Part shown: piece after piece, positions 4,716 to 26,532 of the stretch
Layout of the letters: every line of letters begins with the position of its first letter
Position numbering within the stretch: position 1 is the first letter of the stretch
Origin: Simkania sp.
Lineage (GTDB): Bacteria > Chlamydiota > Chlamydiia > Chlamydiales > Rhabdochlamydiaceae
Direction of reading: 5' to 3'
Assembly (NCBI GenBank): GCA_018333475.1
Contig: JAGXTH010000021.1
Span: 4,723-68,722, forward strand
Length of the DNA: 64,000 bases
Position numbers and translations under genes: made by a program
Notes under the pieces: generated by a model
Told to the model about the DNA's origin: nothing
The model's database searches: none
What the model saw: only the letters and a program-made list of their open reading frames with translations

Positions 4716-5852
4716 ATGGAACAGAAAGAAAGCTTGGAAAAGACAGAAAATGATCTCAGAGGAATTATCGTGAGGACTCATAGGCATTGCCAAACCTATC
4801 GAGTGCGTATTCGGATGAAGGGCGATCAGTGCTTTGATAGGTCATTTAGATCGAAGACACTTGCCAAAAAGTGGAAGAGGGATATGGAGTCGGCAATTGA
4901 GCATGATCGGTATGAATTTACGAATCCTGCGACTAAGCACACTCTCGCCGATCTGATAGATCTCTATATCGAAAGAGTACTGCCAGGGAAGCCGCGAAAT
5001 GCCAAAAATGTCCTTCAGCATTTGACATGGTGGAAAGAAGAACTCGGGCATTTGCTGCTATCTCAGGTGCGGCCTAGCATAATCGCTGAGAAACGGGATG
5101 AGCTACTTGCGGGCTTGATCAGAGGAGGAAAGCTGCGCTCTCCTACAACGGTAGTTCGTTATTTGAGCAGCTTGTCACATGTCTTTTCAAAAGCTGTCAA
5201 AGAGTGGGAATGGATGAGAGAGAATCCCGTTTTTAAGATCGAAAAGCCAAAGCAGGCGCAGGGGAGAAAGAGAGTTTTAACTGAAGAAGAGCAGCAAAGG
5301 CTTTTGCAAGCATGCCAGGAGAGTGGATCGAAAGACTTGTTTTTGATCGTCGCTCTTGCACTAGGAACAGGTATGCGTAAAGGCGAAATCATGGGATTGA
5401 GATGGAGAAATATTCATTTGAAAGAGTCCGTGGGAACGATTGTTCTTGAAAGAACGAAGAATGGTCGCTCAAGGTCAGTTTTGATTACTGGCTTGTTGCT
5501 AGCGCTTTTACAGCAGCGACATAAACAGCAGAAGGAAGATAGCTTGGTCTTTCCGTCTCCTAATCATCCTCACCAGCCTGTTGATATTCGATCTGCTTGG
5601 GAAAGAGTTTTGCAAAAATCTGGGATAGAAGGATTTGTTTTTCATGGATTGCGTCATCAGGCGGCTTCTCAAGCAGCAACAATTGAAAACAGCCCATTGG
5701 TAATCGGAGAGTTGCTCGGTCATCAGACGCTTCAGATGACCAGGCATTACGTGCATCTACCAAGCGCTCATATGCACACGATGGTTGAAGCGCTTCAATC
5801 GAAAATCTTTCACAATTACCAGGAGAGCAGCCATGCACAACTTAGAAAATAA
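4716..5852 (+). CDS. Tyrosine recombinase / phage-type integrase (paralog A)
   Basis: C-terminal catalytic signature GMRKGE...HGLRHQAAS...LGHQTLQMTRHYVHL. Clearly paralogous to the integrase at 20538-21623 along its whole length. Confidence 0.9.
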   Translation: MEQKESLEKTENDLRGIIVRTHRHCQTYRVRIRMKGDQCFDRSFRSKTLAKKWKRDMESAIEHDRYEFTNPATKHTLADLIDLYIERVLPGKPRNAKNVLQHLTWWKEELGHLLLSQVRPSIIAEKRDELLAGLIRGGKLRSPTTVVRYLSSLSHVFSKAVKEWEWMRENPVFKIEKPKQAQGRKRVLTEEEQQRLLQACQESGSKDLFLIVALALGTGMRKGEIMGLRWRNIHLKESVGTIVLERTKNGRSRSVLITGLLLALLQQRHKQQKEDSLVFPSPNHPHQPVDIRSAWERVLQKSGIEGFVFHGLRHQAASQAATIENSPLVIGELLGHQTLQMTRHYVHLPSAHMHTMVEALQSKIFHNYQESSHAQLRK

Positions 5853-8204: not shown

Positions 8205-9692
8205 TTATTTGCAAATTGTCTTTTGTACTTCCTGATTCATCCATAAATGCAGGTGTTCTGTAGCTCTTACGTCATCTTCATTGTAATCAATGATGCCTTG
8301 CAAAGTTTGCCGATCCTTAGTCTCTAGCCACTGCTCGTACCAAAAAATACTCTGTCCTCCGCCAGCTTTGGCATGGCGCCACTTGAAATTCACGAAAGAC
8401 GATTTTGCAATGTCTTTGATCGAATAGAAATACAGAGGGAAAATCACCGATTTATCCACGCTTTTCTTCAAGTCAATCAGAAGCTCTTGGAAGCGATGTA
8501 ACTCATCTGAATCTTTGTATTTTTCAGAGAGTTTTTTTAAAGCCGTTTTCTCATAGTGCGCATAGTGATAGACCTTGTACTCTTGGGGTAGATAACGTAG
8601 CCAGCTAAGAAAATCAACCCACATAGCCTGTTCTAGTTCGGGTGTCTCAGCTAGAAAATAGAGGAAGTACTTCCCAGGATCTTCTTCCGACCAAACAACG
8701 TTTCCGATTCTCGCATATTTTCCTTCAGCATCTCCCACGACCCAAAATCCAAAGAGATATTCTGCTCCAAGCCATGGGTCTCCTTCGATATCGAAATAGA
8801 GTTTGAGGTTGGTTTCCTCGATTAACTCAGGATCAGCAATGAAAATAGGTCTTTTTTCTACTAAGGATTGGGCCTGAATTTTAGCTTTATGGAGGGTGTC
8901 TACAGAGGCGCCGGGGATCTTTGGAAGAGCATCGATGTCCTGGGCTGCCAGTTTTTCGATCGTGTTGATGCCTAACTTTCTCAGACCTTCTGCTGTATCT
9001 TTTCGGAGCTTATAAATTAGAGAAATGTCTTGCAGCTCTTCTGCCTCTCGCAAGCATTCTTTGTACCAAGGGGTCTCTTTTGTAGCGCTCGAGATATGGA
9101 CCGGGTGCCTTTTTCCCTTAAAAATCGCTAAAATCTCATCTATATCTGCCTGGGTCTGCAATAAGATTTTTTCCTCTAAATTGATATCCAATTTTTCAAA
9201 ATTCCTATTTACGATAGAGGCGACATCAGGCGAGTACCCTTGAGAGGCTGAAAGCATCATAGAGTAAAATGCCAGCTGCTGTTTATGAAGGGTTTTTGGT
9301 TCAGAAGATGATTTAACATCGATAGGGACGTAGATCCAGTCTCCAAAGTGAGATATTCCAGGCCGTTTTTCTAAGAGGTCTGGCCTTCCTCGGTAAATCA
9401 CGTTATCAATTCTTTTTTCTAACCACCCTTGATAGATAAGGAATTTCCCTTCTTTCATGAGGCGCAACGTTTCCTCAACGCCCTTTTCAGGATCCATTTC
9501 TGTTACTTCTGTGACTGCCAAAGTTGCCACATATTCTTTTTCATGGATGTTGCCGTCCTCCATAATTTTCAATGTAAATTCTGAAAGCGGCTCTTTTTTA
9601 GTTATGTCTCCAAAGGTATCATGCCATATCCATAAGGGATTTTTATCCAACTTAAAAAAGTGAGATGGAGTGATAATGAATTCTTTATTCAT
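8205..9692 (-). CDS. TM0106-family RecB-like nuclease (PD-(D/E)xK N-domain plus RNase H-fold exonuclease-like C-domain)
   Basis: GRPDLL...VPIDVKSS and QQLAFY motifs (PD-(D/E)xK, QxxxY). The C-terminal LYFDIEGDPW motif is typical of the RNase_H_2 domain in TM0106-type proteins. Confidence 0.7.
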   Translation of the reverse strand: MNKEFIITPSHFFKLDKNPLWIWHDTFGDITKKEPLSEFTLKIMEDGNIHEKEYVATLAVTEVTEMDPEKGVEETLRLMKEGKFLIYQGWLEKRIDNVIYRGRPDLLEKRPGISHFGDWIYVPIDVKSSSEPKTLHKQQLAFYSMMLSASQGYSPDVASIVNRNFEKLDINLEEKILLQTQADIDEILAIFKGKRHPVHISSATKETPWYKECLREAEELQDISLIYKLRKDTAEGLRKLGINTIEKLAAQDIDALPKIPGASVDTLHKAKIQAQSLVEKRPIFIADPELIEETNLKLYFDIEGDPWLGAEYLFGFWVVGDAEGKYARIGNVVWSEEDPGKYFLYFLAETPELEQAMWVDFLSWLRYLPQEYKVYHYAHYEKTALKKLSEKYKDSDELHRFQELLIDLKKSVDKSVIFPLYFYSIKDIAKSSFVNFKWRHAKAGGGQSIFWYEQWLETKDRQTLQGIIDYNEDDVRATEHLHLWMNQEVQKTICK

Positions 9693-9832: not shown

Positions 9833-11698
9833 TTGCGAATGATTAAAGACTTGGAAGTTAGAAAATCAAAATGGCTACGTGATCTTCTTCGATTTTTGCC
9901 ACTGAAAAGTCAGTTTGTACTTTCAGGTAATGTGCGTGATCTCCAAACAGAAGATAAATCTAGTGGAACTGTTGTACGTTCCCTCACTTCCTGTTTGAAC
10001 GCTGAGCTTCGGCAATATGGCTACTCTCATGTTCTGAGTTATGACTTCATCAATGGATTTAAAATAATCGATCCAATGTCTACTCATTCAAGTCACGAGG
10101 CGGCTGAGAACATCATGAAGCAGCTGGGCCTTCAGCCAGTCAATGGCTGCGCTCCAGCAGGTTTAGATCTTTTCGAGCAGGTCCTAGAACAATTGATTTC
10201 ATGGAGAGGGGAGCCTATAGCTTTAATCGTCGATTTCGCATCCCGACTTATCATTCACCAAAATAATCTCAACGATACAGAGCATCGTCTTTTCACACGG
10301 GCACTTATTCGATCTCAAGAAGCACGCGTTCGCGCTCACGGGACACCGTCCAAACCTTTTTTCAATACTGTCTTATGGATCGTAGAAAAAGAAGGGGACA
10401 TGCCCGCCTGGTTTACTCTCGACAACTCCAAGGTTCGCCATATATCCCTTCCAAATCCTGACCACCAAATGCGTCGAGTTTTGGCAGCTTCCTTAATTCA
10501 ATCCCTTGATGGAGCAAAAGAAGCTTCTGCCCAACTAAAAGATGCTGCCGTTCAAAGCTTTGTAGATAATACCGAGGGACTCCTTCTTGTCGATCTTATG
10601 CTCATTGCCCAACTCTGCCGCGAGGAGAAATTAGGATATGCAAAGATCGGAGAAGCCGTTCGTCGTTATAAAGTGGGGGTTTCTGAAGATCCCTGGCAAA
10701 AACTCGACCGAAGAAAGATCCGCGATGGACAGAATTTCATTATGGAACGGGTCAAAGGGCAAGATCATGCAGTCGCTCACATGCTCGATATCATTAAGCG
10801 CGCAGTGACTGGAGTGGGAGCTCCTCGACGTGGCGGTCGCCCTCGAGGCGTCGCATTCTTAGCAGGACCAACTGGAGTCGGAAAGACGGAACTGGCTAAA
10901 TCGATTACAAGCCTTCTATTTGGCGATGAAAGTGCTTACATCCGCTTTGACATGTCGGAATTCAGTGCTGAGCATTCAGATCAACGTTTGATTGGAGCGC
11001 CTCCCGGGTATGTAGGCTATGATATGGGGGGCGAATTAACCAATGCCATCCGAGAGAAACCTTTTAGCGTCGTTCTCTTTGACGAGATTGAGAAAGCTCA
11101 CCCAAAAATCCTCGATAAATTTCTCCAGATTTTAGATGACGGCGTATTGACATCGGGCAGGGGAGAGAGGGTCTATTTCACAGAAGCGTTCATTGTCTTT
11201 ACTTCAAACCTGGGAATCTATCAAACCGATATCACGGGAGAGAGAAAAGCGACTGTTTCCCCAGAGGATCAATTTGAAACCATCCAGAAGCGGATTCGCG
11301 AAGAGATTGAGAAACACTTTAAATTAGCTCTCAATCGCCCTGAAATACTCAACCGAATCGGGGACAACATCATTGTATTCGATTTCATTCGAGACAATAT
11401 AGCTGAGCAAATTTTCAATAGCATGGTAGATAGCGTGCTATCAGACCTGAAAGGATCTCAAAACATCGATATCTCGATCGATCCAATGGCTCTTCAAACA
11501 TTGAGAGAACTCTGCTTAAAAGATCTATCGAATGGAGGAAGGGGAATCCGAAATAAAATTGAAACCCATCTGGTCAATCCTCTTTCTCGAGCTCTTTTCG
11601 ATGAAAACATTGAAACAGGTAGTAGACTTTCTATTCGCTCTGTTGAAACAGGGAAAATCACAAAGCTTAGGCTAGGCACGGAGAGTGCGACATTATGA
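9833..11698 (+). CDS. ClpA/ClpB-type AAA+ ATPase (single AAA_2 module plus ClpB_D2-small-like C-terminus, unknown about 300-aa N-domain)
   Basis: GVAFLAGPTGVGKTELAK (Walker A, about nt 10864-10887), GAPPGYVGY, VVLFDEIEKAHP (Walker B), VFTSNLG (sensor 1), RPEILNRIGDNIIVFDF. A likely ATG start at 9839 follows the TTG at 9833. Confidence 0.8.
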   Translation: MRMIKDLEVRKSKWLRDLLRFLPLKSQFVLSGNVRDLQTEDKSSGTVVRSLTSCLNAELRQYGYSHVLSYDFINGFKIIDPMSTHSSHEAAENIMKQLGLQPVNGCAPAGLDLFEQVLEQLISWRGEPIALIVDFASRLIIHQNNLNDTEHRLFTRALIRSQEARVRAHGTPSKPFFNTVLWIVEKEGDMPAWFTLDNSKVRHISLPNPDHQMRRVLAASLIQSLDGAKEASAQLKDAAVQSFVDNTEGLLLVDLMLIAQLCREEKLGYAKIGEAVRRYKVGVSEDPWQKLDRRKIRDGQNFIMERVKGQDHAVAHMLDIIKRAVTGVGAPRRGGRPRGVAFLAGPTGVGKTELAKSITSLLFGDESAYIRFDMSEFSAEHSDQRLIGAPPGYVGYDMGGELTNAIREKPFSVVLFDEIEKAHPKILDKFLQILDDGVLTSGRGERVYFTEAFIVFTSNLGIYQTDITGERKATVSPEDQFETIQKRIREEIEKHFKLALNRPEILNRIGDNIIVFDFIRDNIAEQIFNSMVDSVLSDLKGSQNIDISIDPMALQTLRELCLKDLSNGGRGIRNKIETHLVNPLSRALFDENIETGSRLSIRSVETGKITKLRLGTESATL

Positions 11699-12366
11699 TG
11701 CTCTACCTTTCCAGAAGCCATTTCCCGGTGACAACATTGGGGCCAGGTCGCCGTATTGGAATCTGGTTTCAGGGATGCTCCATTCGCTGTAAGGGATGCG
11801 TCTCAGCCGACACTTGGGGAACTGGAAAAGGCGGAGTATCTACCGATGAGATTATGAATGTAATCTCTCCTTGGCTGCAAGAGGCAGAAGGGATTACGAT
11901 CTCCGGAGGAGAGCCCTTCGATCAACCAGAAGCTCTCATTCATCTTCTTGCACAACTTCGTTCCAAAACAAGCATTGATATTCTCGTCTATAGTGGACAC
12001 CCTTTCGAGAAAATTGCTCCCACCGTTGAAAAATGCCAAGGAGCAATCGATGCCTTAATTTCAGACCCATACGATGAAAATGCTCCGCAAACTCTTGCCT
12101 TGCGCGGGAGTGATAACCAACGACTCCATTGTCTTACTCTTCTAGGAGAAACGCGATTCCGCCCTTTCGAGCGAGCCCTTAAACCATCGGATAAGACTTT
12201 TGACATTATGTTTGAAGAAGCTGGAGCCATTTGGCTTGCTGGCATCCCTAGGCGCGACGATATGCGGCGCCTGAAAACTATCTTAGCAAAAGAGGGCCAT
12301 CTTGCCGTAACCACACAGGACGAACGCTCTACCAAGGGGAAGATTTATGACTCTCCATGTCCGTAA
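11695..12366 (+). CDS. Radical-SAM activating-enzyme-like protein (NrdG/PflA-type, 4Fe-4S CxxxCxxC)
   Basis: GPGRRIGIWFQGCSIRCKGCVSADTW, with C28-x3-C32-x2-C35 at nt 11776-11799, matches the NrdG-type N-terminus; GITISGGEP SAM-binding motif follows. The start overlaps the upstream stop (ATGATG/TGA at 11695-11698). Confidence 0.8.
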   Translation: MMLYLSRSHFPVTTLGPGRRIGIWFQGCSIRCKGCVSADTWGTGKGGVSTDEIMNVISPWLQEAEGITISGGEPFDQPEALIHLLAQLRSKTSIDILVYSGHPFEKIAPTVEKCQGAIDALISDPYDENAPQTLALRGSDNQRLHCLTLLGETRFRPFERALKPSDKTFDIMFEEAGAIWLAGIPRRDDMRRLKTILAKEGHLAVTTQDERSTKGKIYDSPCP

Positions 12367-15300
12367 GTGCCCAGGGTGTAGAGAAGAACGTCCTGCAGAA
12401 GAAGTGCTCTGCGGAAACTGCTCATGGGATCTCACACAAGAACCTCTAAGACTCCCCGGGCAAGTTGATCTAATTCCTGAAATCCCGAATCCAACACCAC
12501 TCGCGCGCCTTTGTTCTAATGGGCATCCTTTGGATCCTGATGATGAGATGTGTTTTACATGTGGAGCTACTGTCGCTACAGAACCAAGCGCGGTTAACCA
12601 GGAACCTTTATCTCAAGATAAAGAAACCGTCATCGATGGATGGACTGTCATCGATCGCCTGGAAGTCGCAAATGAACCTTTTGAAAGTTTTATTGTTGAA
12701 AGGTATGGGCATAGAGCAAACCTGACTTTATATCTTCCTGATGCACATCCAGAACCCGGCATCTATGAAATTTTAAAACGTCTACCAAGAGATTTTGTCC
12801 CAGAGCTCTTAGCCCATGGCGTATGGGAGTGTCGAAGGTACGAGGTGATAGATCTCATCCAATACCCTAACGTTCTTGATCTTCAATCCGCTTCTATAGA
12901 CTTACCAACTATCCAACAAATCCTGAAATCGATGGGGAGAATTTTATCCTCTCTCTCCGAAAATGGCTTGCGACATGGCAATCTTCACCCAGAAAACATT
13001 TTCATTTCCAATCGAGATCCTCTGAGTTTAATATTGAGTGGCTTTCAATGTAGCCGCCTTTCTACTTTTGATCTTGATACGGTCAAACAGCTAATTTCAG
13101 CTCGTTATACAGCTCCAGAAGTGATCGCTGGAGGGATAAGTGTGGCTTCAGATTGGTGGAGCTTGGGGATGATCATCCTGCAGCTCATTACAAATGGTTC
13201 ATGTTTTGAAGGGATTAATGAAAAAGCGTTCCGGATCCATGTAGTAACTAGAGGCATTTCTCTGCCTAGGGGAATCGATCCATCCATTCATCTTTTGCTT
13301 CGAGGTTTGCTAGCTCGGGATCCTGATCAGCGTTGGCAATGGACCCAGGTTCAGAGTTGGCTAGCGGGAGAGTCGGTAGAGGCCCCTTCTGACACAAAAC
13401 ATGAAGAGAATAAGAGTGGGCCTGCTTTAGAGTTCAAAGACCTTTCCTACACCTGTCCTAAAGCCTATGCCTTAATTGCAGCCGAAGCTTCGAACTGGGA
13501 ACAGGCAAAAGAGCTTCTATTACGCGGTGTGATAGCTACTTGGCTAGAAGATAGGAAATCTGATCCAAAGGTCATAGCCGGTGTTAGGCTCGCCACATCC
13601 ATAGATTCACTCCATGAAGACTTTAGACATGCCTTAGCCCTGATGTGGATGAATCCAAGTTTGCCGCTGATTTATCAAGGGGAAATCGTTACTTCGTCTT
13701 GGATGCTTCAAAACCCAGCCCAGGGATACGATCTCATCACAGGTCCGCTCATGGGACATCTCCGTCAAATGAATAGAGAGAGGCATCTTTTCGATCTTCA
13801 CGAGCGTGAAACAAGAGCGCGAGAAAGAGCTAAAACTCTCGAGATTGAACTCAATGAAGAAAGCTTCAGGCTCTTAGCTTTGGCTTCATCACGCCCAAAT
13901 CTAGAGCGGCAGTGGAGCATGCATCGACGTCTCTACCCAGGATCTGATCATGGTGGGCTGAATTCGTTAATGGATCGCCAGAAAATCACTGATGAAGAAT
14001 TGATGGTTCTTTTGGGGGCTGCGATTCAGCAATATCAACCTCTCGAACAAATCCTCAATCAGGCTAAAGAAGTGGCGACTCAAGCGGAAGTCTCTACCTA
14101 TGAGAATACAGCTGCAAGAGAATGGTTTGAAGTTTCAAGAAGAGATCTTTACCGAGAAATCGAAGAGAGAACAGCGAACTATTCTCGATGCGGAATCCCT
14201 CGTGTCGATGAATGGGCCAATGATTTTAGGATTGAGCGCAGGATCTCATTGCCGCGCGCCTTGGTGCTTCTATCGATTCCCAAAGAATCATGGCAAGAGC
14301 CTCCTCGGCAGCAATATGTCTCTACAATCCTTGAGTTTTTTGAAAAGCGAACGGCAAGCCTGGCACAAAGAGGCCCTCTTGTACGCATGCTGATTGGGAA
14401 ATCGAGCTCTCGGGTCGATCTAGCAGAGGTTGCCGGGAAAAAACCAACATCCACCTCTATTCTAGAGCATCTGATCAGTAGAGTAGAAGCTCCTGTAGGA
14501 ATCGATCGAGCAGCGTTCGAAGACGACTCTGATCTTGAAAGAAAGTTGCGCCGTCTACTCAGCCATGCAAGAACTTACAAGAGAGATACAGGGATCGATA
14601 GCCTCTATCTTGGATTCCCCTTCCTTGTGATGAAAGATAGTCAAGCAGAGATCACGGACAAGAAGCCAAGAATTGCCCCGATTTTGCTTTGGCCGATCAA
14701 AATTGATATCGAAAACAGAGATAGAATCTCCATTCTTTTTGACCGCGATAGAGAAGAAGTGCGCGTAAATCCGGCTCTTACCGGACTGATTGGGCCTGAA
14801 GAAGCAAAGAGATGGGCTGAAACGGCTAAAGAACTTTTGGGAAGGTCCGCAATCCGTATTGGAGATGTAATCGATGCCTTTGGATCTCTAGCAGACCCAA
14901 GTGAAAGGGCTCTATGCGCTCTCCCAGATAGTGCATATAAAGTAAAAGCCGGCGTTAGACAAGTGGTTTGCTCTGCGGTACTCTTCCATGCCGAATTCAT
15001 GGGACAAGCCATAGGGGAAGACTTACGCCAAATGAGGAAAGAATCTCCTGTAGGAACCGGTCTAGAAACGGCATTGCGAGTGAATAAAGATCCTATCGCC
15101 ACACCCGCGCTACCTTCTATTCCAGAAAAAGAGCGCTTTTTTACGATGGAGAGCGATCCTTCTCAAGAAAAGGCTGTTTTCCGTGCAAGGCAAGCTCCTG
15201 GATTGCTCATTGAAGGGCCCCCTGGAACAGGAAAAAGTCAAACGATCGTAAATATCATTGGGGACTGTATCGGTCGCAATCAGACAGTGCTTGTCGTTTG

Positions 15301-18300
15301 CCAAAAATCTGCAGCCCTTGAGGTCCTTTCAAAAAGGCTCGATGCAGAAGGACTTAAAGACCGTTACTTCTACATTACCCATATCAATAAAGACCGTATC
15401 TCTGTCATCCAAAATCTCCGTACCCAGGTCGAGGGGGTTATCCAAGCTATGCGGGCTTACCGCGCGGAAAACATAGACAGAGACCGCGAAGAACTAGCTG
15501 AGAAAATCGAAAAACTGGAAAAGGAAATCGATAAGCACCATGAAGCAATCCACACAGCAGATGCAGCGACAGGACTGAGCTATCGCATTCTATTAGGCCA
15601 GTTGATCGACTTAGAGGATCAAGAAATCAAACTGATTGATGTCCCTGCTCTTAGAAGACTTTTAAAAGATCTTGATCAGAAACAGCTCACGGTGATCGAA
15701 GAAACCTGTTCCCCTATTGGGGGAATTTGGCTTGAATCCTGTTTTGAGGGAAATTCGTTAGAAAAGCTCAAAGTTTTCTCTCCTGATTCTGCTTTAGTTA
15801 ATGAATTCGTCAGCTCTCTTTTTGCCTTCATCGATAAAGAGAAAAAGAGAGACGAGTCAGTCCGACAGTCAACGATAAGCTTCGATGTAGAAGATCCCTC
15901 TCCGCACCAAGAATGGATCGAATCCAACGAATCTCTCTTTCATAAGGTAGACTGGAAGAATATTTCATCCTGGTTCCAACTATTTCCCCAAAATGGACTA
16001 TCCAAAGGCAATGGCTTTATCCAACGACTCGAAGAGCTTAAAGCATCCTTAAATGCTTTAAATTTGAAAGATCACGATTCTGTATTGTCTGCTCATCTTA
16101 TTCACTTGCCTGTCTCGACTGTCAGGAAATGGCTTTCCTGGGCAAAAAGCGCAACTGCGCCTGTCTCTTTCTTCGGTAGCCTTAATCCTGTGCGCTATGT
16201 GCACTGCAAGTGGATTCAGAAGGTGCTCATAGATCTTCAGGAAAAACCATCCCATGAAAGAATAGAACAGATTCAGAGCGCAGCGAATTTAGAGCTTAAG
16301 CTACGACCTCTTCGAGAATTCGTTTTAGAACTTTCTGGCTCACTCTACTCTGAAAGACCTGCCTCGATACCCTTATTTTTGAAAGAATTGCGTTTGACTG
16401 TTGATCTCATGATAGGGGAACTCTATCTAGCACAGAAAGGGATACAAGCTCTTCATGCATGCCCTCGGCAAGAAGAAGTTGATCCAATAGCAAAAACAGG
16501 CGAGTCCGCATACAGAGACCTCATTTCTCGTTATGGGAAAGCTTTTGAACGTCACCAGACTAGATCTCAAAGTATAGACGGATTGGACAGGCTTTCTCCA
16601 TTTTTCTCTGAAGAATTGTTTGAACTTTGCCAAGCCAATATTCGAAATAATCGATCCAATCTCTATGATCTGCAGATCTTAGTTGAGGCGTTACCCTCTC
16701 TCCCTGCTTATCAAGAATTTCGCCTGCAAGCGCCTAATCTCTCACCTGCAGTCTTAAAGATCTTTTCTACTCTCAGAGAAAAGGACAAAGAATTGAGAGA
16801 CTACCCTTCAGAGGAACTAGAAAAGTTGATCCGACGGATTATAGCTCGTGAAGCACGACTGGCTTGGAAAGACCGAATCGAGCAGAGTTTTCCGATTTTG
16901 CGTCTTGCTCAAAAAGAGCTTTCGCGAAAAATCCAAACCCTAGCTGAGTCGAATACCAAAATGAGGACTTTGAATCAGAAGTTCCTCGCTTTCAACATAG
17001 ATATAGAGAAAGTCAGAGTTCCTGATGATTGGGAGGATATCACTCGTCTAAGAGGCCCGAGAGCCCGTCGTCTCCGAGAGGTCATTGAGCGGGGCTGGGA
17101 TATGGGACTTGGATGTCTTCGCCCGATTTGGCTCATGAACCCAGACACAGCAAGCCAATTGCTGCCTTTGAGAGCAGGCATGTTTGATGTGATCATTTTC
17201 GATGAGGCAAGCCAAATCCCTATAGAAAATGCTCTTCCAACTCTCTATCGAGCAAAAAGAACTGTCATCAGCGGGGATGAGAAACAGATGCCCCCTACCA
17301 GTGTTTTTATGAAGCAAATCGGCGACGATGAGGAATCCTCTTCTATGGATGAAGACCTAGATGAAATGATCAGCGATGCAGAAAGAGAAGCTTTAGAAGA
17401 CACCTGGAACAGAAGAGAAATTAAAGATTGTTCGGATTTGCTAACCCTCGGGAAAACTGTTTTACCAAGATCGATGCTACAGATCCACTATCGTTCGAAG
17501 TACCGTGAACTCATCGCCTTTTCAAACGCAGCCTTCTATGGCAATAAACTCAGTGTCCCGGTCAGACACCCAGAGAATGTCATTCAGAATATTCGTCCTA
17601 TCGAAATGATAAGAGTCGATGGCGTCTATGCAAACCAAACCAATAGAAAAGAAGCCGAAAGGGTTGTCGACTGGTTAGCAGAGCGCTGGTCTTCCCCAGA
17701 AAGACCTAGCATTGGTGTCGTGACCTTCAATGCTAAGCAAGCAGATCTGATAGAAGACGTTCTAGCCGAACGAGCCGATCAAGATGCCTCTTTTCGGCAA
17801 GCATTAGGTCAAGAACGAGAGCGTCAACAAGGCGGAGAAGACATGAGCTTCTTTGTGAAAAACGTTGAAAACGTGCAAGGGGATGAAAGAGACGTGATCA
17901 TCTTCAGCTCGACTTTCGGAAGAGATGAAGAGGGGACTTTCCGAAGACAATTTGGGCTTCTCAGCCAAACGGGCGGGGAGCGCCGTTTGAACGTAGCGAT
18001 CACAAGAGCCAGAGAGAAAATCATCCTGATTACTTCTTTACCGATTAACGAAATCTCAGATGCATTGTCCAAGAATCAGGGTCCTAAAAATTCCAGGGAC
18101 TTCCTTCAAGCCTACTTTGACTATGCTTCTAAACTCAGCGATGGCTCTTTAGAAGCTGCTCGGAAATCTCTCGATAGCATGGTTTCTGAAAATCCTTCCA
18201 CTCAGGGAACTTCGAATTTCGATAAGGATGGCTTTACCCGATCGGTCGCAACTTTTATCAAAAGTCTTGGACTCAAGCCATCTGCAATCAAAGAAAATGA

Positions 18301-18583
18301 TGCTTTTGGATTGGATTTTGTGATAGAAGATCCAGAGAAAAAGCGATTTGGAATTGGAATCGAATGCGATGCTCACTGTCACCCTGTTTTGGAAACAGCA
18401 AGAGCTCGTGAAGTTTGGCGTCCTAAAGTCCTCCACATGGAGATCCCATATGTTCATAGAGTGACTAGCTATGCGTGGTATCATCGCAGAAAAGAAGAAA
18501 TGGAACGTTTAAAACAGGTGCTCGAAGAAGCCTTAGGAGTTATGCTCTCAGGGGAGCCCATTCAATCCGGTTCGGGAGGATAA
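12347..18583 (+). CDS. Giant multidomain protein: double Zn-ribbon, degenerate protein-kinase-like domain, DUF4011-like region, SF1 (Upf1/AAA_11-AAA_12) helicase, C-terminal Vsr/DUF559-like PD-(D/E)xK nuclease
   Basis: CPGC..CGNC and C..H..CFTC ribbons (aa 8-72). Kinase-like HGNLHPEN, SGF, YTAPE, DWWSLG, ARDPDQRW (aa about 96-340). DSLYLGFPFL...APILLWPI (DUF4011-like). GPPGTGKSQT (about nt 15215-15241), VIIFDEASQI (about nt 17189), GDEKQMPP, HYRSKYRELIAFSN, VQGDERDVIIFS, LNVAITRAREK. LDFVIED...GIGIECDAHCH (about nt 18301-18385). Confidence 0.85.
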   Translation: MTLHVRKCPGCREERPAEEVLCGNCSWDLTQEPLRLPGQVDLIPEIPNPTPLARLCSNGHPLDPDDEMCFTCGATVATEPSAVNQEPLSQDKETVIDGWTVIDRLEVANEPFESFIVERYGHRANLTLYLPDAHPEPGIYEILKRLPRDFVPELLAHGVWECRRYEVIDLIQYPNVLDLQSASIDLPTIQQILKSMGRILSSLSENGLRHGNLHPENIFISNRDPLSLILSGFQCSRLSTFDLDTVKQLISARYTAPEVIAGGISVASDWWSLGMIILQLITNGSCFEGINEKAFRIHVVTRGISLPRGIDPSIHLLLRGLLARDPDQRWQWTQVQSWLAGESVEAPSDTKHEENKSGPALEFKDLSYTCPKAYALIAAEASNWEQAKELLLRGVIATWLEDRKSDPKVIAGVRLATSIDSLHEDFRHALALMWMNPSLPLIYQGEIVTSSWMLQNPAQGYDLITGPLMGHLRQMNRERHLFDLHERETRARERAKTLEIELNEESFRLLALASSRPNLERQWSMHRRLYPGSDHGGLNSLMDRQKITDEELMVLLGAAIQQYQPLEQILNQAKEVATQAEVSTYENTAAREWFEVSRRDLYREIEERTANYSRCGIPRVDEWANDFRIERRISLPRALVLLSIPKESWQEPPRQQYVSTILEFFEKRTASLAQRGPLVRMLIGKSSSRVDLAEVAGKKPTSTSILEHLISRVEAPVGIDRAAFEDDSDLERKLRRLLSHARTYKRDTGIDSLYLGFPFLVMKDSQAEITDKKPRIAPILLWPIKIDIENRDRISILFDRDREEVRVNPALTGLIGPEEAKRWAETAKELLGRSAIRIGDVIDAFGSLADPSERALCALPDSAYKVKAGVRQVVCSAVLFHAEFMGQAIGEDLRQMRKESPVGTGLETALRVNKDPIATPALPSIPEKERFFTMESDPSQEKAVFRARQAPGLLIEGPPGTGKSQTIVNIIGDCIGRNQTVLVVCQKSAALEVLSKRLDAEGLKDRYFYITHINKDRISVIQNLRTQVEGVIQAMRAYRAENIDRDREELAEKIEKLEKEIDKHHEAIHTADAATGLSYRILLGQLIDLEDQEIKLIDVPALRRLLKDLDQKQLTVIEETCSPIGGIWLESCFEGNSLEKLKVFSPDSALVNEFVSSLFAFIDKEKKRDESVRQSTISFDVEDPSPHQEWIESNESLFHKVDWKNISSWFQLFPQNGLSKGNGFIQRLEELKASLNALNLKDHDSVLSAHLIHLPVSTVRKWLSWAKSATAPVSFFGSLNPVRYVHCKWIQKVLIDLQEKPSHERIEQIQSAANLELKLRPLREFVLELSGSLYSERPASIPLFLKELRLTVDLMIGELYLAQKGIQALHACPRQEEVDPIAKTGESAYRDLISRYGKAFERHQTRSQSIDGLDRLSPFFSEELFELCQANIRNNRSNLYDLQILVEALPSLPAYQEFRLQAPNLSPAVLKIFSTLREKDKELRDYPSEELEKLIRRIIAREARLAWKDRIEQSFPILRLAQKELSRKIQTLAESNTKMRTLNQKFLAFNIDIEKVRVPDDWEDITRLRGPRARRLREVIERGWDMGLGCLRPIWLMNPDTASQLLPLRAGMFDVIIFDEASQIPIENALPTLYRAKRTVISGDEKQMPPTSVFMKQIGDDEESSSMDEDLDEMISDAEREALEDTWNRREIKDCSDLLTLGKTVLPRSMLQIHYRSKYRELIAFSNAAFYGNKLSVPVRHPENVIQNIRPIEMIRVDGVYANQTNRKEAERVVDWLAERWSSPERPSIGVVTFNAKQADLIEDVLAERADQDASFRQALGQERERQQGGEDMSFFVKNVENVQGDERDVIIFSSTFGRDEEGTFRRQFGLLSQTGGERRLNVAITRAREKIILITSLPINEISDALSKNQGPKNSRDFLQAYFDYASKLSDGSLEAARKSLDSMVSENPSTQGTSNFDKDGFTRSVATFIKSLGLKPSAIKENDAFGLDFVIEDPEKKRFGIGIECDAHCHPVLETARAREVWRPKVLHMEIPYVHRVTSYAWYHRRKEEMERLKQVLEEALGVMLSGEPIQSGSGG

Positions 18584-18589
18584 AAGAGC

Positions 18590-19978
18590 ATGAGCGGCCC
18601 TAAGGTTGTACGAGTTGTTACCAAACAAGAAGTGATGTCCATTTGCAGAGGCCGAATCGATGCTCTCCAGGATGCGATCGAGCAATGGCGTAAATATGCA
18701 TCTCGATATGACGCTCTAACAGCAGAAGAAGAGAAAGCCGTAGAAAAGAGGCTTTTTGCCGTCACCAAAATGTTCGAACGTGAGCAGTTTCTAGACGTAC
18801 AAAAACAATGCTCTGTCGAGATTGCATCCCTCCAATCTGACATGAATCGAATACGAGACGAGGCTATTGCTAAGGCAGAGCAAGAACGTACCATGAGAAG
18901 ACGTCTCCAATATTCCGCAGAAACCCTTATCTCGACATTCAAATCCATACAGAAGCAAATCCCTGAGTCCCTCTTACACATTGCATCATCATCTCTCAAT
19001 GCCACTGAAGCTGAATTGGCTACAATGAACGCAACCTTAAGTCGAATACTAACCGAATACACTATGAGCTCGCCTGACCAAAAGAGCATGACTCCTTTAC
19101 AAAAAGAGCTCTCAAAGAAGTTGGCAGAAGGGGAGAAGCTTCAAACGCTTGCGGATTGGAAAGTCCACCATGAAGATGTCAAATCTCTAGAGAAAGATCA
19201 TCGATTGGATAAGCTTATCGCAGAGCTAGAAGCGACTGAAGATAAGTCCTCAGTCAAACCCTTTCTGGATCGCATCGCCTCAATCTCCCAAGAATCATCA
19301 GCGAATAGACGTTCTCTTCTAACTGATTCTCTCATTTTGGATCTGGTTGCTCACTCCAATGAAAGAAAAGACAAAGAGAAAGCAATCGTCTCCATGAGAG
19401 AGATTCGCAGTGAGCTGCATAGGCTTAAATCCAAGAAGGCCAAAAATCTTGAAGCGTTACTCACAAAGGCTATTGATTCTGAAGACATCTCTTCAAGCAA
19501 ACCTCTATACAACCAGGGCCTCATCCTAATTAAGGAAGAAACAAAAGCTATGGCAGGGGAGTCGAGAAGAACAGCGATTCTTAAAGGACTGTCTGAACTA
19601 GGCTATGAGGTTCGAGAGAATATGGCTACAGCATGGGCAGAAAATGGTCGCATAGTTGTTAGAAAACCTAACGAGAAAGGGTATGGTGTCGAGTTAGGAG
19701 CTGTTGAGGATGCCGAAAGAGTGCAAGTTCAGCTGGTTTCCTTTGAGCAGGCTTCCGATGCCTCTAAAGCTTCGCAAGATAGGGATAGGGAAACTATTTG
19801 GTGCTCAGAGTTTTCCCGTCTCCAGTCTCTGCTAGAAAAGTCTGGGACATCTTTGCATATTGAAAAAGCCCTGCCGGTTGGCGCTAAACCTTTGAAGCAT
19901 GTTCAAGAATCGGCAACAATTCCAGGTCGAGAAGGAAGGTCTAAAGAGTCTGCTCCTAAAAGGAAAATGCACGACTAA
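18590..19978 (+). CDS. Hypothetical coiled-coil-rich protein (fourth gene of the operon)
   Basis: 462-aa ORF starting 6 nt after the giant gene's stop. Charged heptad-like sequence; no catalytic motif or TM segment recognised. Confidence 0.6.
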   Translation: MSGPKVVRVVTKQEVMSICRGRIDALQDAIEQWRKYASRYDALTAEEEKAVEKRLFAVTKMFEREQFLDVQKQCSVEIASLQSDMNRIRDEAIAKAEQERTMRRRLQYSAETLISTFKSIQKQIPESLLHIASSSLNATEAELATMNATLSRILTEYTMSSPDQKSMTPLQKELSKKLAEGEKLQTLADWKVHHEDVKSLEKDHRLDKLIAELEATEDKSSVKPFLDRIASISQESSANRRSLLTDSLILDLVAHSNERKDKEKAIVSMREIRSELHRLKSKKAKNLEALLTKAIDSEDISSSKPLYNQGLILIKEETKAMAGESRRTAILKGLSELGYEVRENMATAWAENGRIVVRKPNEKGYGVELGAVEDAERVQVQLVSFEQASDASKASQDRDRETIWCSEFSRLQSLLEKSGTSLHIEKALPVGAKPLKHVQESATIPGREGRSKESAPKRKMHD

Positions 19979-20010
19979 AGATACCTGTGAATGGTGCTAG
20001 AAAGACTAAA

Positions 20011-20250
20011 CTATTTTGTCTCGTCGGGTTCTAATTCTGATGGTATGGAATATTCATCCACTTTTTTGATTGGAAATATAGTGTAGGTTTTAAGATCTAC
20101 CTCATGCTCTTTTCGAATGAAATCATTGGATAAACTGAGATTTTTGGACATGCCATATGCCTCATGAATATTATCCGCTTCTACATAAGCGATATGTTCG
20201 ACTAATTGATAATATCTCACTCGGTATGTTGGCATAAGAACCCCTAACAA
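20011..20250 (-). CDS. Small hypothetical protein
   Basis: 79-aa ORF convergent with the operon. No homology recognised; coding status uncertain. Confidence 0.3.
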   Translation of the reverse strand: MLGVLMPTYRVRYYQLVEHIAYVEADNIHEAYGMSKNLSLSNDFIRKEHEVDLKTYTIFPIKKVDEYSIPSELEPDETK

Positions 20251-20537
20251 TTATAAAAATTACCGCGAAAAGAATGAAAGAAAGAACCTTTCTATGAAAG
20301 CTCCTATCTTTCTCTGTCTACCAGATCTTGTGAGAGGAATGCCGATTCGTCTTGAAATTCTAGCCTTAAAGGCTGAAATGCCGAAGAAACGTCTCCAAGA
20401 AAATCCACCGCGATTCATTTGTTTAATTCCGCATAAACAATCATTTCGAAGTAGATTATATGTTAATGCATGATAAACAACAATCTGTTTATTATTTGTT
20501 TTTATTTTTAAAATAATTAATTTATTAAAAAATAGAT

Positions 20538-21623
20538 TTAGCTAAACAACTTTTTATTTAGAGATTCGGATAGAATGCGGATATGCATACTAGAAAGATG
20601 GGCATACCTCTTGGTCATTTGGACAGTTTTGTGGCCGAGGAGGGTTCCAATTTCAAGCAAACTGGCTTGATTCATAGCTAGATAAGAAGCCGCTGTATGG
20701 CGGAGATCATGAAATCGAAAGTTGGAAATATTTGCTTTTTCGAGCGCAGTTTCCCACGCAGAGCGAATATCGATCGGCTTTGATGAGGAATGCGGAGCAG
20801 GGAATACAAGAGAATTTGAAGGCTGGTTAGAATGTCGGGATCTGAGCAGATCTAGGGCTATTCCAACAAGAGGAACAAAGCGACGTTCCCCGTTTTTGGT
20901 AGTCTGCAAATGAATCGCTCCTCGATCTAAATCGACATCGCACCACTTGAGATTGAGGATTTCGCCGCGCCTCATTCCTGTTGAAAGAGCTAGTATAACA
21001 ACAGGGTAGAGTCCTTTTGATTCGCTCTCTTGGCAAGCTCTGATGAGTCGCATTCTTTCTTCATCGCTCAAGAAACGAGTCCGTTCATTTGAAATTTTTG
21101 GTTTAGAGATCTTCAGGACGGGATTTTCTTGGATCCATTCCCAATCTCTTACAGCAACAGAAAAGGCATGAGACAGACTCGCTAGATAGCGAACGACGGT
21201 AGTAGGAGATCGAGGCTTGTTTTTGCATGTGGGATTTGAAAGAAGATCGTCGCGTTTTTGTGAGATCAGATTGGGCTTGATATCTGAGAGGAGATAGCTT
21301 CCAAGCTCTTGTTTCCACCAGAGAAGATGCTGGCGTACATTGCGAGCGTTTTTTGGTTTGGTAGGTAAAACTTTTTCGATATAGCGATCGATTAATTCAG
21401 AGAGAGTGTGTTTGCTACCTGGCTTCTCATAAGTAAAGATGCCGCGCTCTATGGCTGATTCGGTATCGCGTTTCCATTTCATGGCTAGAGTTTTGGAAGC
21501 GAATGATTGGATGATTACTGGATGTCCTTTGATGCGAACGCGGGCGCGGTAGGAAACTGTCCCGTCTTTGTGGGTGCGTTTGTCGATGCCTTTCATGAAG
21601 CTACCTTTGGTTTTAGTTTTCAA
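20538..21623 (-). CDS. Tyrosine recombinase / phage-type integrase (paralog B)
   Basis: GMRRGE...FHDLRHTAASYL...LGHKTVQMTKRYAHL catalytic signature. Adjacent to the tRNA-Met 3' fragment. Confidence 0.9.
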   Translation of the reverse strand: MKTKTKGSFMKGIDKRTHKDGTVSYRARVRIKGHPVIIQSFASKTLAMKWKRDTESAIERGIFTYEKPGSKHTLSELIDRYIEKVLPTKPKNARNVRQHLLWWKQELGSYLLSDIKPNLISQKRDDLLSNPTCKNKPRSPTTVVRYLASLSHAFSVAVRDWEWIQENPVLKISKPKISNERTRFLSDEERMRLIRACQESESKGLYPVVILALSTGMRRGEILNLKWCDVDLDRGAIHLQTTKNGERRFVPLVGIALDLLRSRHSNQPSNSLVFPAPHSSSKPIDIRSAWETALEKANISNFRFHDLRHTAASYLAMNQASLLEIGTLLGHKTVQMTKRYAHLSSMHIRILSESLNKKLFS

Positions 21624-23558: not shown

Positions 23559-23759
23559 CAAAAGAATATCCGCTTTCATGACCTTCGACACACAGCCGCT
23601 TCCTACTTGGCCATGAATCAAGCGAGTCTGCTAGAGATCGGAACTCTGCTCGGCCACAAAACCGTCCAAATGACCAAGCGGTACGCCCATCTCTCCAATG
23701 CACACATGTATTCCACAACCGTAGCGCTGAATGAGAAATTGTTTAACAGCAGAAAATAA
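23559..23759 (+). pseudogene. Integrase C-terminal remnant (last about 60 codons only)
   Basis: Translates to QKNIRFHDLRHTAASYLAMNQASLLEIGTLLGHKTVQMTKRYAHLSNAHM..., near-identical in protein to the end of integrase B. It is preceded by an in-frame TAA (23556-23558) with no N-terminal part. Confidence 0.8.
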
Positions 23760-23838: not shown

Positions 23839-26532
23839 ATGCCAGCAGAGAAGAAGCTGTGGTGGAGTTCTTCCACAGAACAAACCTACAAGGAACTAGA
23901 TACCGATCCAAAACAAGGATTGTCCTCTGCTGCTATAAAGATAAGATTAGAAAGTTACGGTTTCAATGAGTTACCAGAACCCAAACCCCCTTCCCCATTT
24001 AAACTTTTTCTAAATCAATTTTCCAGTTTCATCGTATGGGTTTTGATTGTCGCAGCTGCCATTGCTGGGATTCTTGGTGAATGGATAGATGCAATAGCGA
24101 TTCTCGTTATCGTTATTCTCAATGCAATCATAGGATTTGTCCAAGAAATTAATGCAGAACGCTCCCTCGCTGCGCTGAAAAAGCTAGCAACTCCAACGTG
24201 TAAAGTGATCCGTGATGGGGTTCTACAGACAGTTCTCTCAAGAGAAATTGTCCCTGGAGATCTTACTTTATTAGAAGCTGGCGATCTGATTCCAGCAGAT
24301 GGAAGAGTCATTCAATCTGTTCAGCTCTCCACTCAAGAAGCATCTCTTACAGGGGAATCTTTGCCTATTCATAAAATGACCAATCCGCTTGCGAAGAGAG
24401 AATTACCCATTGGCGATCAAAAAAACATGGCCTTTATGGGAACAGTTGTCCTTAGCGGTAAAGGACACATGATAGTGACAACGACAGGATTAAATACGGA
24501 ACTTGGAAAGATCGCTTCTCTATTAAGTGAGCACAAAGAAGAACAAACTCCTTTGCAAATTCGCTTAGCCGGATTAGGACGTCGGTTGGTTTTTCTATGC
24601 CTTGGAATTGTTGCGAGTGTCTTTATTTTGGGGATAGTCCAAGGAAATTCTTTTCTTAATATCCTTTTAATAGCAACAAGTCTGGCTGTTGCTGCTGTAC
24701 CAGAAGGACTCTCCGCTATTGTAACCATTGCGCTTGCTATCAGCGTTCGAAAAATGGCTAAGCGTAAAGCGCTGATTCGCCATCTTCCCTCAGTTGAAAC
24801 ACTCGGATGTGCTTCTGTGATCTGTACCGACAAAACAGGGACTCTAACGAAGAATGAAATGAGCGTAAGAAAAATATGGGTCAGTCAAGAACAGATTGAT
24901 GTTTCGGGTGTGGGGTATGCGCCTGAAGGAAATTTCGAATTAAAGTCGCAAACCATTTCCCTTGCAGACTTTCCTGAATTAAAGCGTCTTCTTGAGACGG
25001 GAATATTATGTAATAACGCCAATCTCACACATACGGAACAAGGCTGGCAAATTACTGGCGATCCTACAGAAGGCGCTTTGATCGTTGCTGCAGAAAAAGG
25101 AGGAATAAAAAAGAAGGAACTTGAGACCAGAAATCCTCTTCTTGGGGAGATTCCTTTTGATTCTGAGCGAAAACGGGTGAGTGTCCTTAGACGGACCTCT
25201 GATGGAAATGTTCTTTTTGTTAAGGGTGCGCCTGATTTAGTTCTAAACCGTTGCCAAACAGTTCTCATTAGAAGCGGAAAAGTATCGCTTACACCTTTTC
25301 TTAAACAAGAAATTCTGAATAGCAATCATGATTTCGCGACTGGGGCGTTGAGAGTGTTAGCCATGGCCTATCGAGACATTGAGTCTGACAAGAGCATAGA
25401 AGAATCCATGGAAAACAATCTCACCTTTGTTGGCCTTGTTGCCATGATGGATCCTCCAAGAGAGGAAGTTAAACAAGCGGTTCAAACCTGCATGAAAGCG
25501 GGTATCCTTCCCGTGATGATCACAGGCGATCATAAAGATACAGCGGAGGCCATAGCCAAAGAGTTAGGATTAATGATGGAAGGAAATCTCGCGATTAGTG
25601 GAGTAGAGCTTCAACAGATGAGCGATGAGCAGCTAAAAAAATCTCTTCGAGATATTCGTATTTATGCACGTGTTTCAGCAGAACATAAATTACGTATTGT
25701 GCGGATGTGGAGAAGTCTGGGAGAGATTGTCGCAGTAACGGGCGATGGCGTGAACGATGCTCCTGCGATTAAGGAGGGAGATATTGGGATAGCAATGGGG
25801 ATTAAGGGAACTGATGTCACAAAAGAAGCTGCCGACATGATTATCACTGATGATAATTTTGCTTCCATTGTTAATGCAGTAGAAGAGGGAAGAGGAATTT
25901 ATGATAATATTATTAAATTCGTTAACTATTTGCTTTCTTCGAATATTGCTGAACTCATGGTCATTTTTGCAGGAATGGCGATTGGGTTTAAAGATCCTGC
26001 CGGAAATCCTTTCGTCTCTTTATCTGCAGTCCAACTTTTGCTCTTAAATCTTGTCACGGATGGTTTTCCAGCCATTGCTTTAGGGATGGATCCTGTCGAT
26101 CCAAAAGCGATGGAAAGGCTACCCAGAAAATCAAGTGAACCTATTTTGTCGTCTCGGTTTTCCGTACAGCTAGTATTAATCAGTAGTACCATTGCTGCGG
26201 GTACACTTATCGCTTGCCATTTTGGATTGCGCACCAGCGCAGCTTTAGCGCAAACCATGGCATTTACGACTCTTGTCGTATTAGAACTTGTTCGAGTTCA
26301 AATGGTACGCTCTCAATACCACATCGGTTTTTTTTCCAATAAATGGATCGTTGGAGCATTGGTGAGTTCACTACTTGTTCAGCTGATGATTGTTTATCTT
26401 CCCCCATTGCAGAAAGTCTTTGGAACGGTTGGATTAGGATTAACAGAATGGGGCGTTATTGCCATTGTGGCTTTTGGTGTAGGAATGGGCGGATATGTGA
26501 TTAATCGAATATTTCGGAAAAGGCAAGCATGA
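23839..26532 (+). CDS. Cation-transporting P-type ATPase (P2A, Ca2+/SERCA-like type)
   Basis: CTDKTGTLT phosphorylation site, PEGL(S)[18 protein letters not shown] and [11 protein letters not shown] motifs. About 10 TM segments; length 897 aa. Confidence 0.88.

Follow-up and report, generated by a model that had tools for sequence, protein, structure and literature searches.

The four-gene cassette

A window of 64,000 nucleotides (nt) from a metagenome-assembled genome (MAG) of Simkania sp. (Chlamydiota; contig JAGXTH010000021.1) was analysed, and all coordinates given here are positions in this window, that is, in the whole stretch of DNA. At positions 9833-19978 it carries a cassette of four co-directional genes, which had been proposed in a sequence-only reading of the window as a candidate novel defence operon:

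9833-11698, + strand: gene 1, tandem AAA+ protein, 621 amino acids (aa)
11695-12366, + strand: gene 2, small radical S-adenosylmethionine (SAM) enzyme of the PflA/NrdG type, 223 aa
12347-18583, + strand: gene 3, giant multidomain protein, putative sensor-effector, 2078 aa
18590-19978, + strand: gene 4, helical/coiled-coil protein, 462 aa

The genes are translationally coupled, as had been claimed, and the coordinates and junctions given in that reading were exact; only the start of gene 1 had to be corrected. Read directly from the sequence, genes 1 and 2 share an ATGA overlap (11695-11698). Genes 2 and 3 overlap by 20 nt (12347-12366), with a GGGGA Shine-Dalgarno-like site ahead of the gene 3 start, and a 6-nt gap (18584-18589) separates gene 3 from gene 4, the start of which is preceded by the Shine-Dalgarno-like site GGGAGGA. 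The ATG at 9839, which gives a protein of 619 aa, is a more probable start of gene 1 than the TTG at 9833, because its closest orthologues (loci L001 and L003 of the comparison described below) have 619 aa. The G+C content of the operon is 0.44-0.47, compared to approximately 0.40-0.42 in the flanks. Scans for promoters and terminators returned sites no more numerous than in shuffled sequence. In the NCBI annotation, gene 2 is a 'radical SAM protein' and gene 4 a 'hypothetical protein'. The domains that had been predicted for the four products were nearly all recovered by Pfam, PADLOC, and NCBIfam, and are described protein by protein in the following.

The giant helicase-nuclease protein

The product of gene 3 is composed of the following parts, listed from the N- to the C-terminus:

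12368-12565, + strand: double zinc ribbon, residues 8-73 (DZR, 7.7e-4)
12689-13357, + strand: protein-kinase fold, residues 115-337 (Pkinase, 7.8e-16)
13427-14506, + strand: conserved middle domain of approximately 360 aa, residues 361-720 (mean column identity 62%)
14522-18034, + strand: DUF4011 and superfamily 1 (SF1, Upf1-like) helicase, residues 726-1896 (Pfam)
18233-18520, + strand: restriction-endonuclease-fold nuclease, MTES_1575 (Vsr/DUF559-like), residues 1963-2058 (MTES_1575, 3.7e-15)

Pfam thus returned a double zinc ribbon, Pkinase, DUF4011 (1.5e-12), AAA_11 (3.8e-17), AAA_12 (4.6e-20), and MTES_1575, in agreement with the zinc ribbons, the kinase-like domain, and the Hhe-like C-terminal two thirds with DUF4011 helicase and nuclease that had been expected.

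In the zinc ribbons, every one of the 67 homologues with sequence for this part keeps the cysteines at positions 8, 11, 22, 25, 56, 69, and 72. The kinase-like domain scored well above the Pkinase cut-off (58.7 bits vs. 31.7), and its PDB matches are eukaryotic kinase domains. The β3 lysine is replaced by threonine in 61 of 68 homologues, the aspartate of the DFG motif is missing in 68 of 68 (S/G/T-G-F-G), and the asparagine of the catalytic loop is not conserved. The HRD aspartate is kept in 61 of the 68 and is an asparagine in the clade of the window. Due to the loss of the β3 lysine and the DFG aspartate, the domain is predicted to be a catalytically dead pseudokinase across the whole family. 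Among the PADLOC models, it resembles the defence kinases MAD6 and PD-T4-6. The middle domain gave no Pfam match, and a profile built from 25 homologues found nothing in the PDB.

In the helicase, a helical insertion of approximately 550 aa separates Walker A (residue 957) from Walker B (residue 1618). The motifs GPPGTGKS and DEASQ are invariant among the homologues, and the helicase also matches IGHMBP2 and Sen1. In the nuclease, D1990, C2007, and D2008 are found in 68 of 68 homologues, and E2006 and H2012 in 67 of 68. Since these catalytic motifs are invariant, both the helicase motor and the nuclease are predicted to be intact and competent.

The best PADLOC match of the giant protein was PDC-S37 (9.6e-151, 502 bits; residues 925-2062 against model positions 283-1341 of 1550, a model for which no cut-off is given), followed by Hhe and MkoA. 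The PDC-S37 match includes the long insertion inside the helicase and leaves the first 924 residues unmatched. ProA (NF058533) was matched with 520.9 bits, about one third of its cut-off of 1500, by residues 727-2063 on model positions 453-1707 of 1903. For Hhe, the score was 314 bits in NCBIfam (NF042953), with the best stretch confined to residues 1576-2059, and 1.3e-61 in PADLOC (PDLC02194). ProA and PDC-S37 are therefore the best-scoring relatives, from which gene 3 differs by its unmatched N-terminal third; PDC-S37 is listed as a single-gene candidate. The source paper for the NCBIfam name 'ProA' was not found in the literature search.

With Hhe, which is reportedly a single-gene anti-phage protein that protects against phage, gene 3 shares a homologous DUF4011, an AAA_11/AAA_12 SF1 helicase, and a C-terminal Vsr/MTES_1575-type nuclease. 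In contrast to Hhe, it carries an additional front end of approximately 720 aa (zinc ribbons, pseudokinase, and middle domain), and it is embedded in a four-gene cassette in all but a few degraded loci. Judged by these profile scores, the putative effector is a relative of Hhe, ProA, and PDC-S37 and not a member of the Hhe and ProA families.

The ClpB-like AAA+ protein

Two AAA+ domains were assigned to gene 1:

9833-10702, + strand: predicted degenerate AAA+ domain, residues 1 to approximately 290 (AlphaFold2 and Foldseek)
10841-11632, + strand: predicted active ClpB-D2-type module and D2-small domain, residues approximately 337-600 (Pfam and motifs)

The C-terminal half matched Pfam AAA_2 (4.8e-46) and ClpB_D2-small (9.5e-07), and the best PDB sequence matches were D2 chains, that is, the second rings, of ClpB and ClpC. 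The ClpA/B D2-type unfoldase module that had been recognized in the letters is hence present. Its Walker A (GPTGVGKT), Walker B (DEIEKA), GYVG pore loop, and sensor-2 region show almost no variation across 75 homologues. The N-terminal 290 residues gave no family match. An AlphaFold2 model of this part, built on 25 homologues, reached a predicted local distance difference test (pLDDT) score of 84 and matched the AAA+ domains of FtsH, p97-D1, Vps4, and the proteasomal Rpt subunits (Foldseek probability 1.0, template modelling score of approximately 0.45). SGNVRD and VDFA occupy the positions of Walker A and Walker B in this domain. Because the N-terminal domain has an AAA+ fold that lacks Walker A and Walker B, while the D2 motifs are kept, gene 1 is predicted to encode an AAA+ protein of two rings, of which the first is dead and the second is a live threading ring of the ClpB type.

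The D2-type AAA_2 module, the GYVG pore loop, and the D2-small domain are shared with ClpB, Hsp104, and ClpC. Compared to ClpB and Hsp104, gene 1 is devoid of the N-domain, the M-domain, and an active NBD1, and its partner genes differ. The score against the ClpB model TIGR03346 was 260 bits at a cut-off of 1232, and only model positions 528-846 were matched. On inspection of the sequence, no ClpP-docking [IVL]G[FL] tripeptide was seen behind sensor 1, in the segment after SNLG (IYQTDITGERKATVSPEDQ...), the expected position of the loop being taken from ClpC and ClpB sequences. In PADLOC, residues 280-460 gave a partial match to DolB (3.8e-18), and PDC-M37B was likewise matched in part. Dodola is reportedly a defence system that pairs the ClpB-like ATPase DolB with DolA. 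Thus, the ATPase of Dodola partly resembles gene 1, whereas DolA matches none of the four cassette proteins in PADLOC.

The radical-SAM enzyme

Gene 2 matched Pfam Fer4_12 (4.2e-25) and, weakly, Radical_SAM. Among 13 diverse homologues from six lineages, C28, C32, and C35 (CX3CX2C), GGEP (71-74), GPG (16-18), R20, and DTW (39-41) are invariant. The best PDB match of the family profile was PflA (2.9e-13, positions 13-143), to the motifs of which those of gene 2 align; the only further match was a weak one to QueE. The small NrdG/PflA-type activase of the sequence-only reading is borne out by Fer4_12, by the motifs, and by this PflA match. In NCBIfam, gene 2 scored 82.2 bits against NrdG (cut-off 126.1) and 56.2 bits against PflA (cut-off 231.75); NrdG was the best match both there and in PHROG. 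Gene 2 thus has the CX3CX2C cluster site, the GGEP SAM motif, the GPGxR loop, the DTW motif, and the compact size of the PflA/NrdG activases, but remains below both family cut-offs and has a conserved, family-specific C-terminal region. Judged by its motifs, it is predicted to be a catalytically complete radical-SAM enzyme of the protein-activase type. Known members of this activase clade abstract hydrogen from a glycine in a partner protein. The 25 families found most often among the 143 nearest neighbours of the cassette do not include NrdD/Gly_radical. A conserved G-Y dipeptide at residues 459-460 of the giant protein was considered as a glycyl-radical site and discarded as too short to count.

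None of 5027 PADLOC models was matched by gene 2 (E≤0.01), so that no radical-SAM defence component represented there resembles it. The prokaryotic viperins are radical-SAM enzymes of established anti-phage defence. They share with gene 2 the radical-SAM chemistry and a probable defence context; however, viperins belong to a nucleotide-acting clade and gene 2 to the protein-acting activase clade.

The coiled-coil protein

For gene 4, no match was found in Pfam, PADLOC, NCBIfam, PHROG, or the PDB, whether by sequence, profile, or fold. Its AlphaFold2 model (pLDDT 80) is made up of long helices and, at the C-terminus, a small alpha/beta domain, in line with the coiled-coil protein that had been expected, and gave no significant Foldseek match (best E 0.18). 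The most conserved parts are a near-invariant N-terminus (MSGPKVV) and the C-terminal domain. The family comprises 320 representatives (50% clustering, E≤1e-30), the best-scoring full-length ones of which have approximately 440-470 aa. According to the model, gene 4 encodes a predicted helical, scaffold-like protein.

Recurrence, hosts, and mobility of the cassette

Motifs derived from the radical-SAM family were used to scan one genome per GTDB species, which resulted in at least 537 loci. The best 80 of these were compared in detail by scoring eight sequence segments. As far as the contigs extend, 79 of these 80 loci carry all eight segments with order and spacing unchanged, the sole exception being L006, in which the AAA+ gene is lost. 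Approximately 70 of the 80 have four intact open reading frames (ORFs), and 4-nt overlaps are common. Similarly, a metagenome scan seeded with gene 4 returned 38 loci with enough upstream sequence, 36 of which carry every part, and two further look-ups with gene 4 showed identical gene order and Pfam content. The flanks lack conservation: any one flank family is seen in 6 of 81 loci at most, and flanks differ even among Bradyrhizobium species, which indicates that the cassette is self-contained. The four genes are thus found together outside this genome in nearly every locus examined, in several phyla. A chance adjacency was considered and is excluded by the ordered co-occurrence across unrelated genomes with unconserved flanks.

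Hosts found with the radical-SAM motifs are Chlamydiota, Verrucomicrobiota, Legionella, Alpha-, Beta-, and Gammaproteobacteria, and Acidobacteriota; the proteobacterial ones include Bradyrhizobium, Rhizobium, Burkholderia, Cupriavidus, Pseudomonas, Stenotrophomonas, and Gilliamella. A protein search added Myxococcota. Between the window and the proteobacterial copies, identity is 65-74% for the second ring of the AAA+ protein, 52-62% for the radical-SAM enzyme, 31-59% for parts of the giant protein, and 26-40% for gene 4. After the copies in Chlamydiia and Verrucomicrobiae, Legionella carries the next-closest relative of the window cassette. From the upstream nuclease gene (see below) to gene 4, the window shares a block of 87% nucleotide identity with a Chlamydiia MAG and likewise with a Verrucomicrobiae MAG. 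Such identity between classes indicates a recent lateral transfer of this block. Together with the position of Legionella as next-closest relative and with the decayed or rearranged copies in L002, L006, and L125, it argues for horizontal mobility of the cassette.

These three copies differ in what is left of the cassette. In L002 (a Chlamydiae MAG, 10653-18429), the cassette is decayed and the giant gene is in fragments. In L006 (5000-20003), a ~2.8-kb insertion splits the start of the giant gene in addition to the loss of the AAA+ gene. The metagenome contig of L125 (Ga0364908_10032) carries at 9851-11389 a solo gene 4 homologue of 74% identity, with no AAA+, radical-SAM, or giant gene; it adjoins an integrase and genes for RepB primase and DUF3987. 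The stretch homologous to the window begins 14 nt before the stop codon of the giant gene, and the left part of the island is inverted. L125 looks like a rearranged or deleted derivative of the window island, or a mobile element that kept gene 4 only.

Two contigs labelled as Actinobacteria MAGs were also among the loci. One of them, binned as Iamiaceae, has cassette coordinates and identities equal to those of a Bradyrhizobium MAG contig (L043, L044), so that this actinobacterial occurrence is probably a binning error and not reliable.

Pseudomonas orthologues and previous descriptions

P. aeruginosa orthologues of the cassette genes were used as core markers for the right flank of the defence hotspot cDHS1 (Johnson et al., NAR 2023, PMC10250203). 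These flank genes appear to be the same cassette, and Pseudomonas loci, including that of P. paraeruginosa (L076), have the full four-gene order. There, the genes bound the hotspot and were not treated as a system, whereas the copy in the window lies on an integrase-bounded chlamydial island. The orthologues in strain PAO1 may be PA2725-PA2728; a 2016 paper lists 'PA2727 + PA2728' as one gene of a repair category.

Apart from this trace, the literature search found no paper that names or tests the cassette. PDB sequence searches with the four proteins returned no solved structure beyond the generic ClpB, PflA, kinase, and IGHMBP2 matches. No single named system among the PADLOC models covers all four genes, the radical-SAM enzyme and gene 4 being without any match. 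The claim of novelty consequently holds insofar as the cassette is undescribed as a system in the databases and literature searched; its orthologues, however, were already in use as flank markers of cDHS1.

The effector is thus of a known kind, the Hhe/ProA-like helicase-nucleases, and its obligate set of partners is new: a PflA/NrdG-type activase devoid of a glycyl-radical enzyme, a ClpB-like ATPase with a predicted dead first ring, a predicted pseudokinase front end, and a novel helical protein. No defence precedent for a PflA/NrdG-type activase without a glycyl-radical enzyme was found in the literature, and neither was a mechanistic account of how Hhe-type helicase-nucleases are controlled.

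Putative function and competing explanations

With moderate confidence, we consider the cassette to be an uncharacterized defence or conflict system, most likely directed against phages or other mobile genetic elements, with the giant protein as effector. This function is inferred from effector homology and gene context. The best matches of the giant protein are PDC-S37, ProA, Hhe, and MkoA, its kinase-like domain resembles MAD6 and PD-T4-6, and the AAA+ protein is partly similar to DolB and PDC-M37B. Regarding the context, the cassette of the window has a raised G+C content and lies in an integrase-bounded island beside an AbiL pair, the P. aeruginosa copies border cDHS1, and defence-type genes occur among the neighbours. 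The 143 nearest neighbours include MkoA-like helicases (6), Upx (2), Ppl (2), AriA/GajA/AbiL-type ATPases, AbiEii, and rve transposases.

Several findings weigh against this assignment. In P. aeruginosa, every isolate has the orthologues as part of its core genes (PMC10250203), and such a core status is atypical of defence systems. The giant protein is far below the family cut-offs of Hhe (2000 bits) and ProA (1500 bits). Most of the 143 neighbours are unrelated genes, and the numbers of defence genes among them are raw counts and suggestive only. Neither 50,697 phage records nor the IMG/VR viral contigs contain the cassette, and of 72,556 plasmids only 12 carry it; most of these are Rhizobium megaplasmids, and PGAP annotates the four genes there generically. 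Furthermore, Pfam detected neither Gly_radical nor NrdD in the four cassette proteins, no substrate of the radical-SAM enzyme was identified, and a glycyl-radical motif (RVxG[FYW]) was not seen on inspection of the conserved segments of the partner proteins.

The core status in P. aeruginosa would be accounted for if the cassette served housekeeping nucleic-acid maintenance, in which an Upf1/Sen1/IGHMBP2-like helicase-nuclease clears aberrant DNA or RNA such as R-loops and stalled complexes, the AAA+ protein strips off bound proteins, and the radical-SAM enzyme provides redox or oxygen control. The helicase matches to IGHMBP2 and Sen1, the strong conservation of the AAA+ protein and the radical-SAM enzyme between Chlamydiota and Proteobacteria, and the absence from phages and near absence from plasmids are in favour of such a role. 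We nevertheless regard it as unlikely: the distribution is patchy, with flanks unconserved even within Bradyrhizobium, the cassette of the window sits on an integrase-bounded island, copies were transferred across classes at 87% nucleotide identity or became pseudogenes, and the named proteins most closely related to the giant protein are without exception anti-phage proteins. The cassette could also be a selfish module that serves the mobile island itself by addiction, competitor exclusion, or transfer control rather than protecting the host. An integrase-bearing island is found in the window, in L003, and in L125, the last of which, a rearranged derivative, carries RepB-primase and DUF3987 genes, and transposases occur among some of the neighbours. 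However, most of the 80 genome loci have no adjoining integrase or replication genes and are flanked by ordinary chromosomal genes, and the P. aeruginosa copies belong to the stable core genome, outside the variable hotspot; this explanation therefore seems quite improbable.

That gene 2 is an ordinary NrdG in a coincidental neighbourhood was considered as well, as JGI names many of its homologues 'anaerobic ribonucleoside-triphosphate reductase activating protein' and NrdG is its best NCBIfam and PHROG match. We find this barely credible. The score of 82 bits is below the NrdG cut-off of 126, gene 2 has a conserved extension of approximately 75 aa that is absent from the E. coli-type NrdG (a model of 154 positions), NrdD/Gly_radical is not prominent among the nearest neighbours, and, a few degraded loci aside, gene 2 always sits between the AAA+ gene and the giant gene. 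The only viral matches, phage NrdG-like genes, do not exceed 40% identity and are largely confined to residues ~13-144. The annotation of gene 2 as a true NrdG was rejected on the basis of the score below cut-off, the extension, and the fixed gene position.

As a defence or conflict system, the cassette might operate as follows; the sense/activate/degrade logic suggested in the sequence-only reading is equally hypothetical. Because of their translational coupling and obligate co-occurrence, the four proteins may act as one complex. The N-terminal modules of the giant protein would sense the invader, and its helicase-nuclease would destroy nucleic acid. The AAA+ unfoldase and the radical-SAM enzyme would act on a protein substrate, either a component of the cassette or a protein of the invader, and thereby arm, license, or reset the effector, while the coiled-coil protein could serve as adaptor or inhibitor. 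Confidence in a specific role for the radical-SAM enzyme is much lower than in the defence or conflict function as such, since neither a glycyl-radical domain nor a motif of this type was found in its partners.

A more specific version of this scheme, which we consider very doubtful, is an immune switch by a protein radical. The unfoldase would expose a buried segment of a cassette protein or thread a protein of the invader, the PflA-like enzyme would install a glycyl-type radical, and the effector would be activated directly or be released by oxygen-dependent cleavage. Pyruvate formate-lyase that is exposed to oxygen is cut at its radical site. In aerobic hosts, radical and oxygen would similarly cut the polypeptide and release the effector irreversibly. 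If true, the switch would represent the first glycyl-radical-type activase outside metabolism and a new principle of immune activation.

Irrespective of such details, an effector that is tied to two protein-acting enzymes and a scaffold-like protein points to a layer of control that is undescribed for any defence system found. With at least 537 species-level genomes and 320 gene 4 sequence clusters, the cassette has a wide distribution, and its presence in every P. aeruginosa isolate, beside the best-studied defence hotspot of that species, makes it testable in a tractable organism. Should its function not be defence, it would still be a large conserved machine in an important pathogen.

Island context and neighbouring genes

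The surroundings of the cassette contain the following features:

364-2282, + strand: AbiL-type abortive-infection pair (AbiLi-like AAA_21 ATPase, 2.7e-77; AbiLii/RloB-like, 1.3e-26)
4716-5852, + strand: left tyrosine integrase (Phage_integrase, 1.6e-29, and Int_N), shared with L003 and L125
8205-9692, - strand: Cas4/RecB-like and RNase_H_2 nuclease (RNase_H_2, 6e-25; Cas4), divergent from the operon
20261-20419, + strand: conserved element of approximately 157 nt after gene 4 of the Chlamydiia-type copies (79-88% identity in L001, L002, L003, and L125)
20538-21623, - strand: right tyrosine integrase (Phage_integrase, 1.2e-31, and Int_N)

The two integrases are paralogous (inverted repeat), and the AbiL pair sits just outside the left one. 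The description of the locus as an integrase-bounded island with a defence-type neighbour was therefore correct. No clean direct repeats were found at the island ends.

The nuclease at 8205-9692 falls within the DNA block shared with L001 and L003. In 10 of 81 loci, a homologue is found immediately upstream of the cassette, so that the nuclease is a recurrent neighbour and not an obligate one. It is a standalone gene in the Chlamydiia-type copies and is fused to an SF1 helicase in L013, L015, L043, L044, L045, L054, and L067. The nuclease may be a facultative fifth component.

Between gene 4 and the 157-nt element, the window contains 280 extra bases (19979-20260). The element had no Rfam match and no support from covariation. 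Where L125 departs from the window, about half of the changes are synonymous in the + frame of an ORF of 59 aa (20294-20473), for which reason the element may be a small protein gene.

At the right border of the island, the 3' end of the right integrase gene recurs upstream of a P-type ATPase gene, as a copy in an inverted repeat of 125 nt with 82% complementarity (20593-20717 and 23571-23695). Such a copy points to an integrase remnant or to a former rearrangement of this border. Further downstream, at 26529-27477 (+ strand), two adjacent ORFs of 179 and 143 aa match positions 23-94 and 526-583 of the 713 positions of a glycogen/carbohydrate phosphorylase model and are probably a decayed phosphorylase pseudogene.

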